Shown in pieces: positions 18,014 to 64,000 of a stretch of 64,000 nucleotides of DNA. The stretch comes from Octopus vulgaris (lineage: Eukaryota). Where the stretch lies: positions 1,736,001 to 1,800,000 of the forward strand of contig OX597826.1 in assembly GCA_951406725.2 (NCBI GenBank), read 5' to 3'. The notes below the pieces were generated by a model. It saw nothing but the letters and a program-made list of their open reading frames with translations, did not search any database and was not told the origin of the DNA. Numbering within the stretch: position 1 is the stretch's first letter; each line of letters starts with the position of its first letter. Made by a program: the position numbers and the translations under genes.

Positions 18014-18064
18014 AGCTTCTACAGGACTAGAACTGTTTCATTCAAATGAAATCATCAGGAAGCT
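18014..18064 (-). ncRNA. type I hammerhead ribozyme motif (family A, minus copy)
   Basis: Identical reverse complement of 18119-18169. Confidence 0.65.
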
Positions 18065-18118
18065 TGGTGTCAAGAATAGTTTTGACATGTATAAATGCCA
18101 AAACTATTCTTGACACCA

Positions 18119-18169
18119 AGCTTCCTGATGATTTCATTTGAATGAAACAGTTCTAGTCCTGTAGAAGCT
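18119..18169 (+). ncRNA. type I hammerhead ribozyme motif (family A)
   Basis: Stem I AGCUUC/GAAGCU; core CUGAUGA; weak stem II UUC-AUUU-GAA; GAAA; stem III ACAG/CUGU with loop UUCUAGUC; cleavage triplet GUA. Confidence 0.7.
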
Positions 18170-30416: not shown

Positions 30417-31200
30417 TACAAAATGGTATCAAGAACTTCCCAGAGTAGTCCTGTAGTGTGCCAATATATGGCAGCACATGGTTGAGTGCACAATGAGAGC
30501 TAGCAGTGACATTCACAAGGCAGTGTGTTGAGTGATATCGCTGGGTGTACTTCATAAGTTGTGAAATTTGTGTTTTTCTGATCAAGTATATGCTGTAGTC
30601 TGCAATTTTTATCATGGACAGAAAGTTGAAACAAAGAGCCAATGTGAAATTTTGCGTTAAACTTGGCAAGTCTGCTACAGAAACATTGAGCATGTGTTGG
30701 TAAGCTTATGGTCATGAAGCATTGAGTGGATTGGGCACTTCAAAAGCGGAAGAACTGTCTGCGGAAGATGATGAGTGAACTGGAAGACCTTCAAAGGAGA
30801 TGATGATAGAACTTAGGTAAATAAGTTATTTTTTATTACATGTAGCTGGCTCTATTAAACATAGCCGGTTCTATTAAACGTAGCCAGTTCTATTAAATGT
30901 GGCCAGTTCTATTAAACATGGCCGGTTCTATTAAACGTAGCCAGTTCTATTAAACGTGGCCAGTTCTATTAAACGTAGCCGGTTCTATTAAACGTAGCCA
31001 GTTCTATTAAATGTGGCCAGTTCTATTAAACATAGCCAGTTCTATTAAATGTGACCAGTTCTATTAAACATGGCCGGTTCTATTAAATGTGGCCAGTTCT
31101 ATTAAACATAGCCGGTTCTATCAAATGTAGCTGGCTCTATTAAATGTAATTAGTTTTATTAAATGTAATTAGTCTGGGAACTTTTTGATACTACCTCGTA
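30417..31200 (+). mobile_element. internally deleted mariner transposon
   Basis: TIR GTCTGGGAACTTTTTGATACTACCTCG|TA with a degenerate left mate; from 30614 MDRKLKQRANVKFCVKLGKSATETLSM..AYG..(FKSGR)..EDDE*TGRP = mariner N-terminal HTH. Confidence 0.85.
30840..31170. repeat. 19-bp minisatellite (GTAGCCAGTTCTATTAAAC), ~17 units
   Basis: Seen directly, inside the mariner next to its right TIR. Confidence 0.95.
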
Positions 31201-37620: not shown

Positions 37621-38209
37621 TGGACCCTGGCTATCACTCAGGTGACCAGGCACTCGTGACTGAAGATAAGCTAACCAGCTCAAAACTGAGTCAGTCTTGT
37701 GGTCCTGTTGTCTGCTAGAAGATGGTAGGGGTTCGCCCCACCCTGCTAGCAATATATATTGCAGATAAAGGATGCACCGATAACCAGCTGGTGGAAAGTC
37801 TGCCTGGTGTTAAACTAGTTGTAACATGGAATAAACTCTTTGATGTAGCAATTGACTTTACTTGTTAGCAGAGTTACAACTCTGATCTCTACTTGAGATT
37901 TTACAGCTACTATTTTGCTTGTTACAAATCAGTGACCAATGGTCACTTGGTTTACAATATATTGCTGGCTGGAGTGGACTGTGGCAATTGCTCTGGTGAC
38001 CAGGTACTTGCACTGAAGACTAGCCAACCAGCTCAAAACTGGGTCAGTCTTGCAATCCTGTAACCTGCTAGAGGATGGTAAGGGTTTCGCTTCCACTGCT
38101 AGCAATATATATTGTATATAAAGGGTGCAGTGATAACCAGTTTGTGGAAGATTTGCCTGGGATTAAACTAGTAGTAACAGGGAACAGTCACTTTGAGGTA
38201 GCAATTGAC
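37621..38209 (+). mobile_element. ~354-bp tandem monomers (about 1.7 copies), each with a degenerate type I hammerhead: candidate non-LTR retrozyme
   Basis: GGTGACCAGG at 37641 and 37995; hammerheads at 37654-37702 and 38008-38055: CUGAAGA, stem II AGCU-AACC-AGCU, (G>A)AAA, stem III ACUG/CAGU, triplet GUC. Confidence 0.7.
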
Positions 38210-38245: not shown

Positions 38246-38316
38246 TTTATTAATAAAGCTGCAAAGACATCACAAGAACTGTTACTCAGAGTTTCACGTT
38301 CCCATTCGGACAGTTT
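38246..38316 (-). mobile_element. family C hammerhead-bearing pLTR-like fragment (core partly deleted)
   Basis: AACUGU CCGA AUG-GGAA-CGU GAAA CUCUGAG UA ACAGUU; homologous to 45011-45198. Confidence 0.5.
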
Positions 38317-38989
38317 TTACATACATACATGTGTGCGTGTTTATTTTATATTTGTTTCAGTCATTTGACTGCGGCCATACTGGACCCCAGGACTTATCCT
38401 TTGTAAGCATAATACTTATTCTATTGGTTTCTTTTGCCAAACCACTAAGTTACAGAGACAGACATGCCACCATTGGTTGTCAAGTGATGGTGGGGGGGAC
38501 AAACACAGACAGACACACACGTAAATGCACACACACACACGCATGTATATGACAAGCTTCTTTCAGTTTCCGTCTGCCAAATCCACTCACTAGGCTTTGG
38601 TCATCCCGAGGCTATAGTAGAAGACACTTGCCCAAGGTGTCACGCAGTGGGACTGAACCCAGAACCAACCTCTTTACCACACAGCCACGCTTACTTATAC
38701 AAATATATGTAATTTGACTACTCTTTTTAGCAGTTTGAGTAGCCATGTAGAAGCGCTCTCATTAATATATGAGAGTTTATATGAGTGATTAACTGGTTAG
38801 AGTTATTAGAGTGCTGGATAGAATGTGTTGCATTATTTATTGTGATTCACTGAATTCAGAGTTCAATTCCCACCAAAGTCAGTTCTGCTTTTTATTCTTT
38901 TGGGGGCTCAATAATAAAAGTAGCAAATCCAGGACAGTATGTGTGTGTGAGAGACAGACAGACAGACACGGGGTGGGGGTGATAATGGT

Positions 38990-44569: not shown

Positions 44570-44848
44570 TATTTACATTATTTACATTTGACGGATATTT
44601 GTCCTCATCTTGTTTGTTGTTAAGACAATGTTTTGGCTGATATACCCTCCAGCCTTCATCAGGTGTCTTGGGGAAATTTTTCGAACCTGGGTTCTCATTC
44701 CTAAGGTAAGGTGTCTTCCAAAGGTGTCCCCAAGACACCTGAAGAGGGCTGGAGGGTCTATCAGCCGAAACATTGTGTTAACAACAAATAAGATGAGGAC
44801 AAAATATCCGTCGAATGTAAATAAATCCTCATTTCTTAAATATAGAAT
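44570..44848. mobile_element. divergent (inverted) pair of Penelope pLTR-like units with minimal hammerheads (family B)
   Basis: Minus copy 44622-44667 and plus copy 44734-44779: GACAC CUGA(U/A)GA N GGCUGG...UCAGCC (G)AAA C(A)UU GUGUU. Confidence 0.7.
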
Positions 44849-45010
44849 TGTTTTCCATTTGTCTTTCTTTATCTTACACACACACATATATAGATAGATA
44901 GATAGATAGATACACATGTTTTGTAAACAACTTGCACTTGCATAAGCACACAAATACAAAACCAGGTGGAAAAAAGAAATACTCAAATAACAAAGGAAGT
45001 GCAATATAAT

Positions 45011-45198
45011 TTTTATTAAAGCTGCAAAAATCTTCAGAAACTCTTACTCAGAGTTTCACGTTCCTGTTCGTCGGACAGTTGTGATGAATACTGCATTAAA
45101 ATGGTCAATTTTAATTTAGTATTCATCACAACTGTCCGACAAACAGGAATGTAAACTCTGAGTAACAGTTTGTGAAGATTTTTGCAGCTTTAATAAAA
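45011..45198. mobile_element. foldback with two family C hammerhead-like motifs (CCGACGA core)
   Basis: Arms 45011-45092 and 45118-45198; minus copy 45039-45080 AACUGU CCGACGA AC..GU GAAA CUC U GAG UA A(G)AGUU. Confidence 0.65.
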
Positions 45199-46608
45199 GC
45201 ATGTGCAGGAGTGGCTGTGTGGTAAGTAGCTTGCTTACCAACCACATGGTTCCGGGTTCATTCTCACTGCGTGGCACCTTGGGCAAGTGTCTTCTACTAT
45301 AGCCTCGGGCCGACCGAAGCCTTGTGAGTGGATTTGGTAGACAGAAACTGAAAGAAGCCTGTCATATATGTGTGTGTCTATCCCCCCAACATCGCTTGAC
45401 AACCGGTGCTGGTGTGTTTACATCCCCATAAGTTAGCAGTTCGGCAAATGAGACCGATAGAATAAGTACTAGGTTTACAAAGAATAAGTCATGGGATCGA
45501 TTTGCTTGACTAAAGGCAGTGCTCCAGCATGGCCACAGTCAAATGACTGAAACAAGTAAAAGAGTAAAATATATATATATATATACATATCCCATTACAC
45601 AAATGTATACACAACACGTGCACATGCTCAGACCAAGGCATTCATTATATACATTTAAATGCTTGTAAGTATAGATAGGTAGATATATATATATAGATAC
45701 ATGTATGTATATACTCGTGTATTTATATACACGTAGACGAAAGCTTGAAGTCCTCCCATTAAATTTACTTGAAGAAGAAACCAAAAAACAATGGAACTCA
45801 TTCTTCCTCAAGAAAGAACAGTCCGGTCTTTGATAACCTTCTACTAGCCACCCACCAGTATCATTTTTAATGGTTTGGCTTCTTCCAAACTGCCAGATAA
45901 GATAATATAATGGTTTTTTTTATAAATGCATGAAAGATGACATTCTTTAAAGTTGCAGAAGTAGGAGTGGAAAAATGCAGCGTTGTATCATTCATGCCTT
46001 TCACAGTGTATTGTGAGTGAAGACATATCTGTGTGGTTACGAAGTTCACTTCGTAATCATGTGGTTCTGAGTTCTGCCAGTTTGCCGTCTTTGAGTCAAC
46101 AAATATTATCATCACTCATTGATCTTCCATGCTGGCATGGTTTGAAAGGTTCGACAAGTACCAGGGCTGGATTAAGACCTAAAGAGGCCTTAAGCACTTC
46201 AAAGATTTTGGTACCGCACCCCTGTATATATGTAATTCAAAATATAAACAGTTACAAACTATGAAATGATTTTTCTTTTTTTAAATGAAACAAAACTAAC
46301 AGTCGATGGAAAATAATGTTTTTATATTAGAAAAGTTTTCTTGCTTTTAATTGCGAAGTCTTTCATCAGATCCTCACTATGACACGATGAACACTTTGAA
46401 ACTCTATTTCCGATCATATAAACTACTTCGAATATTATGTTAGCAAGTTTAACCCTTTTTAGTATTTGAACTAGCCATATCCGGCCCAAATATTGTTTTA
46501 CGTTCAAACCAACCAGATCTAGCCTCTTACACCAACCCTACAATGCCATTCTGAATGCAGTAAATAGTGAACAGGAGTAGAAGTGTGGTCAAGCCCATTG
46601 TGCGTATG

Positions 46609-62370: not shown

Positions 62371-62845
62371 ACTTGGTTCAAGGTTAGATATCATTACATA
62401 TGTGGATCTAATTACTAAACTTCTTGAATGTTTCACATATTTTGACAGTGTCTTTGATAGCTAGTTGCTATAATCTTTTGATTATGCGTTCTCTTTCCGG
62501 TTTTGTGAAATTTAACCTCTCGAGTTGGCATCGATGCTGCTAGTCATGTTCCCAAATGCACAAGTAATTATTGGCAGGAATCTAAAGACTATAGTCCGGA
62601 TGATAAACCTGTGGATTTCCTATTAGTTCGGCATAAATGTTGCCTTTGTCAGTAATCTATGATATTATGTTGACATCATATAGTCGTAGGCGTGGCTGTG
62701 TGGTTAAGGGGTTTGCTTCCTAACCATGTGGTCTTGGGTTCAGTCCCACTTCGCAGCAACTTGGGCAGGTGTCTTCTACTATAGCCTCAAGCTGACCAAA
62801 GCATTGTGAGTGGATTTGGCTGACGGAAACTGAAAGAAGCCTGTC

Positions 62846-62879
<34 letters not shown>

Positions 62880-63111
62880 GTGTGTGTGTGTGTGTGTGTA
62901 TGTGTGTGTATTTGTTCCTCACTACCGCTTGACTGTCAGTTTTGATTTGCTTACGTCGCCGTAACTTAGCGGTTAGGCAAAAGTGATTGATAGAATAAGC
63001 ACCATATTTTAACAAAGCAAAATACTGCTGTCGATCTGTTCGATTAAAAATCCATGAAGGTGATGCCCCAGCATGGCCGCAGTCCAATGAGAGCCACAAG
63101 TAAAAGATATG

Positions 63112-63345
63112 AAAATCTCCTGGGCAAATGATTTCAGTTGTTGCGCATAGGTTCTTTTCCCTGTTCCTAATCACGATGTCTGGTCTGTTACGCTTGCATT
63201 TTATTGAAGTGTTAATCGAGATCTTCCACCAGCTTTCTTTCATAAAATTGCGCGTTTATACTCTCCATGTCACCGTAGATCCTTTTTATTTGTCTCCTCA
63301 GGATTGTCAGCATCTTTGAAAAGCAATTTATCTGAAATAGACATC
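63112..63345 (-). mobile_element. RLE-type (R4/Dong/NeSL-like) non-LTR retrotransposon endonuclease fragment
   Basis: WWKISINTSIKCKRNRPDIVIRNREKNLCATTEIICPGD matches W...I.T.....NRPDIV.......C..IE...P. Confidence 0.8.
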
Positions 63346-63349
63346 CTGC

Positions 63350-63830
63350 AATAAATAGCGAGTGCGAAAGCGATCTGAATTAACCAACTGGAAAAGATGT
63401 CTTCCTAGGGTTGAAGCTGCTGTAGCATCTTCTCATACAAAACATCCACGTTAAAGTGGCGATAAACACTCCTTTTTGAGTCGTATACTGCTTCTATCTC
63501 GGATGGAGATTTTCTAACGGATTAGTTTCCTAGTTACAAAATCAGTGATTATATGACATTGTATTCCCTGTATATCGCAAGCGACTTTGAACTGCTGCTA
63601 TGCTTGGTAAACGAATGCCCACAACTGAGGAGATCCAATAAGATCGAAATCACGTGGTCTGGTGGTCTTGAAGCTAGGGTGGCAGGAGTTATCTCCCGCT
63701 TGCACTAAATATGGAGTGCGGAAGCGCACTGAATTGATCAACTGGAGGAGGTGTCTTCCTGGGGTTGAAGTAGCGGTTTCGTCATCACTTAGAGAAGACC
63801 CACGTTAAAGTGGCGATAAACACTTCCTTA
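63350..63830 (+). mobile_element. second locus of the ~354-bp monomer retrozyme-like family (about 1.35 copies)
   Basis: Diverged direct repeat starting at 63360 and 63714 (CCACGTTAAAGTGGCGATAAACACT identical in both). Confidence 0.7.
63619..63665 (+). ncRNA. type I hammerhead ribozyme with an intact catalytic core (family D)
   Basis: Stem I CCACAA/UGGUGG (1 mismatch); CUGAGGA; stem II GAUC-CAAUAA-GAUC; GAAA; stem III AUCA-CG-UGGU; triplet GUC, cleavage after 63659. Confidence 0.85.
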
Positions 63831-64000
63831 GACATGGACAAGCTTTTTCCAGAAGCGAGGCGTATGAAGTATGACTCATCAGCAAGCGGGCCGCACTACT
63901 AGACAAAAAAAGAAAGAAATTCAAGGTAAATTTTTGTTGCCATTCAGTAAGTCCAACGGGCCGCAGTTTGCTCATTACTGATCTAAAACGTAAATTAACC

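Follow-up and report, generated by a model that had tools for sequence, protein, structure and literature searches.

A decayed, 5'-truncated copy of a non-LTR retrozyme lies near 63 kb in the window, as we call the whole 64-kb stretch of octopus DNA analysed here. We put the probability of this reading at about 0.8, with the additions that the parent family likely used a promoter of the snRNA type, likely formed 354-nt RNA circles and was likely copied into the genome by a Penelope enzyme. By its testable features the locus belongs to the metazoan non-LTR retrozymes. An earlier sequence-only reading had already called the element retrozyme-like. Its hammerhead, its repeat period and its homology to a second locus at 37.6 kb stand, but its monomer array and its intact ribozyme do not, and it missed both the Penelope marks at the insert ends and the likeness of one block to U1/U2 promoters.

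The hammerhead can be read directly from the letters. The core sequence CUGAGGA occupies 63625-63631 and GAAA 63646-63649, stem II (63632-63645) pairs GAUC with GAUC around a CAAUAA loop, and the UC that follows stem III places the predicted cut after C63659. In fact, all 11 of the 11 core nucleotides are kept, and stem III, UCACGUGG, does contain the palindrome CACGUG, both as first described. Yet "intact" is too strong a word for this ribozyme: stem I carries two mismatches, A.G adjoining the core (63623/63661) and A.C more distally (63615/63667), both of which are paired in the majority sequence of its family. The hammerhead fold of the window copy is worth only -1.8 kcal/mol, against -14.2 kcal/mol for that majority, and its minimum-energy fold is not a hammerhead. 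The covariance search that had been suggested as a check gives a divided answer. The best Rfam match, Hammerhead_HH9 (RF02275, clan CL00010), covers the motif over the full length of the model (63611-63678, 28.9 bits, E 0.0042), but the gathering score is 52 bits, so that by threshold the window hammerhead is not an HH9 member.

The insert around it is short. The repeat period is 354, the repeated part spans 129 columns with 103 identical (80%), and the element amounts to 1.36 units with a single hammerhead, which is not the array that had been proposed; Tandem Repeats Finder reported neither this locus nor the one at 37.6 kb. The insert begins at about +40 past the cut, ends at +170 in the unit that follows and is 87% identical to the family majority. 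A 7-bp duplication, TAGACAT, adjoins both of its ends and, because about 900 register pairs were tried, this candidate target-site duplication rests on its position at both ends (Table 1). The unit itself has the traits of a retrozyme unit (150-450 bp, head-to-tail, GC under ~45-50%, no LTRs), with its length of 354 bp, and in the open-frame listing it holds only short open frames, as expected of non-coding retrozyme units. The contigs of four RNA runs contain scattered pieces of the family, none across the insert and none with a joint, and are uninformative on level, strand and circles. Just upstream of the insert, a minus-strand open frame of 158 aa occupies 62782-63255; its first part may resemble a restriction-like endonuclease fragment of site-specific non-LTR elements. 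Window positions 63030-63110 are the 3' portion of a short interspersed repeat of very high abundance, and hundreds of RNA-run contigs match there.

Table 1. Features of the 63-kb insert and of its relative at 37.6 kb (window coordinates; + offsets count from the cut site).
Feature	Position	Strand	Evidence
Left copy of the candidate 7-bp target-site duplication TAGACAT	63338-63344	+	Abuts the independently mapped 5' end
Complete insert of family B (retrozyme; 5'-truncated; 1.36 units of 354 bp)	63345-63828	+	Alignment, duplication
Repeated part, first copy (80% identity with 63701-63829)	63347-63474	+	Self-alignment
snRNA-promoter-like element, ATCAGTG core at 63541	63535-63552	+	Matrix match to U1/U2
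Type I hammerhead	63612-63670	+	Motif reading, Rfam, fold
Stem I (internal loop UGC/U, two mismatches)	63612-63624 with 63660-63670	+	Sequence, fold
Stem III, short, palindromic	63649-63658	+	Sequence
First part of the structured domain (+71 to +240), up to the short 3' end site (+165 to +170)	63730-63828	+	Fold, family ends
Right copy of the candidate 7-bp duplication	63829-63835	+	Flank comparison
Copy of the sister family A, 1.66 units, with two hammerheads (cores 37660, 38013)	37621-38209	+	Alignment, motif

The element at 37.6 kb is a true relative. Aligned locally, the two loci score 85, against 24.5 +/- 2.9 for shuffled sequences (0 of 500 reach 85), and 288 of 502 columns are identical (57%); the pairwise comparison proposed earlier thus upholds their homology. 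The period, held to be the same at both loci, is 354 at 63 kb but 353 at 37.6 kb, where it is 354 only upstream of a 1-nt gap (repeat identity 81%). Shared blocks had been described at matching offsets, and the upstream one, GTTACAAA(A)TCAGTGA, indeed precedes the core by 92 nt at both loci (63533 and 37921), but the downstream one, CA(A/G)CTGG, lies 114 nt after the core at 63 kb and 125 nt after it at 37.6 kb. Both hammerheads at 37.6 kb lack G12 (CAAA for CGAA) and neither has an Rfam match; the insert stops at the short 3' end site and is followed by (TA)n.

Each locus stands for a family, which we label B for 63 kb and A for 37.6 kb. Genome searches returned 470 first-look candidates for B, on many contigs, and 1175 for A, the best 40 being scored in each case; the best non-self match in B is 82% identical to the copy at 63 kb, and the best ones in A are up to 83% identical to the copy at 37.6 kb. 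Family B is therefore dispersed and multi-copy, as mobile retrozyme families are. From the best 30 loci of each search we built majority monomers of A and B, which are both 354 nt long and identical at 237 of 371 columns (64%). Both form a canonical type I hammerhead with a six-pair proximal stem I, an internal loop UGC/U or UAC/U, a loop 2 of the form CAAnnA and a palindromic helix III whose stability depends on dimerisation (cofold -12.3 kcal/mol, against 0.0 as a monomer). Such an arrangement of stems and loops has been described for metazoan type I ribozymes (PMC4209133). The claim that the stems differ completely between the two loci does not hold for their families: compared by eye, the majorities differ in one stem II pair and in three of the six proximal stem I pairs.

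A further family, D, has a 364-nt unit and 2344 candidates, of which the best 40 were scored; two damaged pieces excepted, its copies are 93-99% identical to one natural unit. Aligned globally, it is 55% identical to B and 51% identical to A (0/300 shuffles), and the significant segment of this homology lies at +71 to +240 after the cut, in the structured domain that is the best conserved part across families A, B, C and D. The core of D is the U3-A8 variant, a known one among hammerheads (PMC4209133), whereas the A/B branch has C3-G8. Members of D such as L176, L179, L187 and others of L162-L191 show the same fold and the same two-end rule. The third diverged subfamily, C, was met at L083:5583-5810, 1.3 kb after a Penelope ORF and separate from it, in a copy whose 3' end falls at the long site and is followed by (TA)n. 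Searched across the genome, Rfam Hammerhead_1 gave 6 matches, none of them an A or B hammerhead, and HH9 gave 4, including one A and one B copy. An exact 35-nt pattern of the common core had 0 genome matches, and a shorter one of 29 nt, its position 7 left as N, had 4 at 3 loci, the window included; no young B copy was seen with these two core-pattern searches of the genome. Another hammerhead family, with a long stem II insertion and inverted pairs, occurs at L089, L090 and L093 (~1500-1650).

What the families share beyond the ribozyme is a predicted shape. Folding the monomer as a circle, a check that the sequence-only reading had suggested, succeeds for the majorities but not for the window copy: compared with 40 shuffles each, the A majority reaches a z of -8.7, the B majority -5.4 and the natural D unit -7.7, while the window monomer (z -0.7) folds no better than its shuffles. 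The highly self-paired circular monomer expected of a retrozyme is thus found in the B majority and not in the window copy. The predicted layout in A, B and D consists of the ribozyme, a rod of 45-60 bp that extends stem I and, as a head, five or six hairpins. Between the A and B folds, 50 of the 112 aligned A pairs are identical, 10 have changed on both sides, 13 on one side, and 23 are broken; this retention of changed pairs (23/46) beats a uniform null (7/5000) but not a transition-rich one (374/5000). In all three families the main 3' end site is bridged by one predicted helix, which would require the RNA to be continuous there.

The upstream block shared by the two loci, already singled out in the earlier reading, resembles host promoters. 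In a set of 15 U1 and 15 U2 loci, representing four promoter types, ATCAGT (ATTAGT in one) stands at -57 to -61 in 15/15 U1 and 13/15 U2 loci, and this element is matched by the block, 118-122 nt before the cut site. In B the block is the best matrix match at four widths (0-2 of 1000 shuffles); in A it is the best at three widths (1-21 of 1000) and is lost at the widest; in D the best match falls at the homologous place at three of four widths but is not significant (82-792 of 1000). Leave-one-out recovers three of the four promoter types, and the block also lies in a predicted stem. We lean towards taking it for an internal snRNA-type promoter; by the spacing of U1/U2, transcription would then start at 63598-63600, about 25 nt before the core. 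At matching distance in nine other hammerhead loci, the promoter matrix found nothing in eight, and the ninth match is a family A copy; the family of L089, L090 and L093 has no match at that distance. A block at +134 to +152, likened to a vertebrate promoter element, was dropped, the host U1/U2 genes pointing to the other block. Loci that combine the promoter-like block with two downstream cut sites are rare (1/51 in B, 0/55 in A and 0/29 in D). The one B locus, L016 (G000:C3:134193583-134197045), has ~2.1 units and core changes in both ribozymes. Two high-scoring U2 copies, L197 and L204, share identical upstream sequence without ATCAGT; they may be retrocopies or result from an insertion at the start of U2.

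The ends of the inserts suggest how they were pasted. Among 51 unique B loci, 34 have their 3' end at +150-180 (the short site), 11 at +205-240 (the long site) and none within 12 nt of the cut; for the 55 A loci the counts are 31, 15 and 0. The 5' ends are scattered. In D, ends lie at +229-238 and inverted arms at +170-178, a search in which the query was biased towards long ends. Among 32 A/B loci that include an inverted piece, 16 join a short to a long end, one is short-short, one long-long, and in 14 an end falls into neither class. A microsatellite is found within 40 nt of the 3' end in 23/51 B and 26/55 A loci, against 16% of 2400 flank windows. The copies thus show the ends expected of mobilisation by Penelope: two internal 3' ends, a one-ended tail, 5' truncation, inversion and microsatellite targets. 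In fact, all but the first of these traits are described for Penelope elements (Craig et al. 2021, PMC8557442), and in vitro the tail is delimited by two internal sites where a Penelope enzyme begins reverse transcription (Frangieh et al. 2024, PMC11167929). We consider it likely that A, B and D were pasted by a Penelope-type, Neptune-like enzyme.

Candidate sources of such an enzyme abound. The genome has many frames that join a reverse transcriptase (RT) to a C-terminal GIY-YIG domain, several of them 781 aa long, and in translated RT/GIY-YIG frames we saw the cysteine linker that is a trait of the Neptune and Nematis clades (PMC8557442). We compared 27 GIY-YIG loci (15, and 12 with wider flanks) out of 150 scored and 6136 candidates. 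Blastn of the A and B majorities against these 27 gave a single match, the separate subfamily C copy at L083; the 14 regions downstream of GIY-YIG loci that were searched for an autonomous partner held no convincing match to A/B, and no Penelope frame was seen beside A/B copies in an open-frame listing read by eye. Because none of the 27 loci shares A/B sequence, it is the insert ends that point to the carrier. At L076-L080, Penelope elements that are young and intact have, besides the 781-aa ORF, a second frame upstream. Downstream of the ORF, their 3' region contains repeated CCAAT- and CRE-like boxes and a TATA-like box, and by eye a U3-A8 hammerhead-like motif can be made out ~80 nt before the 3' end.

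How, then, was the template presented to the enzyme? Loci retrieved with a short downstream query (one duplicate locus per set) cross the cut site in 24/30 cases in B and 18/30 in A, and start at it in 2/30 and 3/30, about as often as chance predicts. Indels at the cut affect 6/55, 2/60 and 0/26 crossings, where 6.9, 5.8 and 0.8 are expected, so there is no excess. Since inserts cross the cut without a scar, the template was continuous over it, be it a circle, an uncleaved multimer or the product of an end-to-end jump. Circles of mussel, coral and axolotl retrozymes have been demonstrated (Cervera and de la Pena 2020, PMC7229834), and from the octopus junctions we judge an RNA circle to be the likely intermediate of the spread of these families.

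To explain these results, we propose the following cycle. From the ATCAGT-like block, transcription would begin some 25 nt ahead of the ribozyme core, and a promoter would be carried within the RNA by the unit that follows. A tandem pair of ribozymes would free a monomer to be closed by a host ligase, a step borrowed from the mussel, coral and axolotl retrozymes. The monomer would fold into the ribozyme, the 45-60-bp rod and the multi-hairpin head that are predicted alike in three families. A Penelope enzyme would nick AT-rich DNA and start reverse transcription at the two internal sites, with the circle as its template, read for more than one turn. Such prolonged copying is favoured because, if the promoter holds, a linear transcript loses a unit at each generation. 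The window copy would be a fossil of this cycle, without monomer release.

The same family and the same carrier might instead have relied on a linear template, with read-through multimers or cleaved monomers joined by jumps and with circles as mere by-products. We regard this as the less probable course, but a serious one: ribozyme-dead mutants transposed normally in vitro, uncleaved RNA being the main substrate of the anole Penelope enzyme (PMC11167929), and with a helix III that is short and predicted to be stable only as a dimer, cleavage may be slow. A linear template would however lose a unit per generation if the block is a promoter, so that something must regenerate the tandem, and loci that retain the block with two cut sites are as rare as stated above. 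The junctions are free of scars and the 5' ends are not piled up at the cut, which again speaks against it, even though an end-to-end jump between monomers would look alike.

The cyclic model can be carried one step further, tentatively and with somewhat less than an even chance of being right. A, B and D may form one old lineage with three parts, an RNA-internal promoter of the U1/U2 type, a hammerhead behind the start and a hairpin head with two Penelope start sites, whose ring of 354-364 nt and whose fold would have persisted at 51-64% identity through the swap from C3-G8 to U3-A8. With the promoter just downstream of both start sites, renewal would be possible only by copying for more than one turn, and the circle would therefore be obligate. 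If this three-part replicon is real, the young D family allows a direct test.

We think it improbable that the 354-bp unit is a pseudo-LTR, multiplied by truncated insertions of an autonomous Penelope element not found here. Pseudo-LTRs do hold hammerheads and form partial tandems (PMC8557442), and the retrozymes of Xenopus are related to them (Li, Clavereau and Pollet 2026, 10.64898/2026.07.22.740005). The octopus copies, however, pass seamlessly into the next 354-bp unit, over up to 739 nt; mapped copies have no shared 5' point of exit from the unit; the ribozyme, which has a loop 1/loop 2 contact motif, is of the canonical and not of the minimal Penelope type; and the 27 Penelope loci yielded just the one separate copy 1.3 kb after the ORF. 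Nor do the mapped copies look like autonomous Penelope elements, as they run unit into unit and into unrelated flanks without an attached RT/GIY-YIG ORF. An ancient descent of the unit from a pseudo-LTR may lie behind the family.

The retrozyme copy at 63 kb is itself old. It has decayed by ~13% from the B majority, and repeats within one insert are on average 81% identical (20 B and 26 A pairs). The core is complete in five of 33 ribozyme instances in B, where neutral decay would leave 6.9 (a chance of 0.21 per copy), and non-CpG changes are as frequent in the core (41/337) as elsewhere (1398/12511, p 0.54). In A, 14 of 41 instances have a full core, against 9.6 expected, and core changes are fewer (31/425) than in the background (1571/14780, p 0.025), which speaks weakly against decay alone in A. 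The window insertion with its flanks is present in DNA of three other organisms, and its 5' junction in a fourth; one ortholog contig covers 63150-63898 with 65 substitutions and 12 gap letters. Because it has one ribozyme with a damaged stem I, in an insertion common to several organisms, the window copy is a fossil that cannot release a monomer and is predicted to be unable to make a circle. Active retrozymes are recognised by two consecutive units with complete ribozymes (10.64898/2026.07.22.740005); at 63 kb there is one ribozyme, and at 37.6 kb both are without G12.

We accordingly give little credit to a locus that is intact, under selection and making circular RNA today, or to a ribozyme kept by the host. 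Its 11/11 core bases would fit such a locus, as would the ribozyme pieces in two other organisms, which differ at only 3/171 and 3/190 bases; but about one copy in five keeps its core by chance, and this divergence matches that of the flanking pieces in the same two organisms (19/~400 and 10/326; 11/318 and 9/333). A single ribozyme, two stem I mismatches, a fold of -1.8 kcal/mol and a ring z of -0.7 likewise speak against activity. Monomer length and ribozyme structure had been said to be under selection, which is supported for the families (354/354 nt, circular folds, the same architecture, D) but not for the 63-kb locus, with its one ribozyme, its damaged stem I, a ring that folds no better than shuffles and a family in which the core shows no protection after insertion (p 0.54). 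Selection acted on the replicating parent RNA of A, B and D: the two majorities are both 354 nt at 64% identity and have one architecture, which D has kept.

The idea of a hammerhead motif formed by chance in an ordinary satellite or a local duplication is refuted, despite an Rfam score below gathering and a window copy that does not fold as a hammerhead, by the hundreds of dispersed relatives, by majority monomers with every helix paired, by the core and fold analysis, by an inter-locus homology reached in 0/500 shuffles and by the fixed 3' ends.

Among known systems, the nearest are the metazoan non-LTR retrozymes, with units of 350-390 bp in mussel and 331/353 bp in axolotl and GC <45% (PMC7229834). 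The octopus element shares with them the type I hammerhead, the non-coding ~350-bp unit, the self-paired predicted circle and co-occurrence with Penelope elements, and rolling copy from the circle is proposed there as well. It differs in that its copies are old and mostly 0.3-2 units long, and in that cleavage and circles, demonstrated in those animals, are predictions for the octopus families; the parts of that text used here name no cephalopod, no fixed internal 3' ends and no promoter. A Penelope link and many dispersed, monomer-size copies unable to transpose are also reported by Li et al. (10.64898/2026.07.22.740005). Their link consists of co-occurrence and pseudo-LTR homology in vertebrates, and ours of the end structure, with no homologous pseudo-LTR found. 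With Neptune-clade Penelope elements the octopus families have in common 5' truncation, partial tandems, inverted 5' pieces, a one-ended tail, microsatellite targets and two internal starts downstream of the hammerhead (PMC8557442, PMC11167929); unlike them, they are without an ORF, have a tail of 55-60 bp instead of 30-40, and carry a canonical, not a minimal, ribozyme.

The hammerhead repeat of newt satellite 2 is about 330 bp long. Transcription of this satellite by polymerase II from an internal snRNA-type promoter has been reported (PMC2220036); the newt promoter was tested, whereas that of the octopus is a match to host U1/U2 sequences only, and in a mollusc. Our literature search, which left supplements, subscription papers and Repbase/Dfam outside its scope, found no paper on cephalopod retrozymes, none on octopus non-autonomous Penelope elements with a ribozyme and none joining hammerhead retroelements with a proximal sequence element.

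The copies of these families record the transcription and pasting of animal retrozymes, which the literature leaves as proposals. What they record are two fixed internal starts as in Penelope biochemistry, a scar-free passage of the cut and a candidate snRNA-type promoter. New from the window are an old C3-G8 branch, its homology to a young U3-A8 family and the promoter match. As a fossil, the window locus is unsuitable for cleavage or circle assays; family D, a young relative with thousands of candidate copies, is a live system and the best material for experiments.

The window also holds repeats of other kinds. Near-perfect long inverted repeats lie at 18030-18153, 44635-44767 and 44997-45210, where they give spurious microRNA matches, and are probably miniature DNA transposons; a half copy related to them follows right after the family A insert, at ~38250-38320. 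A 19-bp minisatellite of 16.7 copies with 84% matches occupies 30851-31167.
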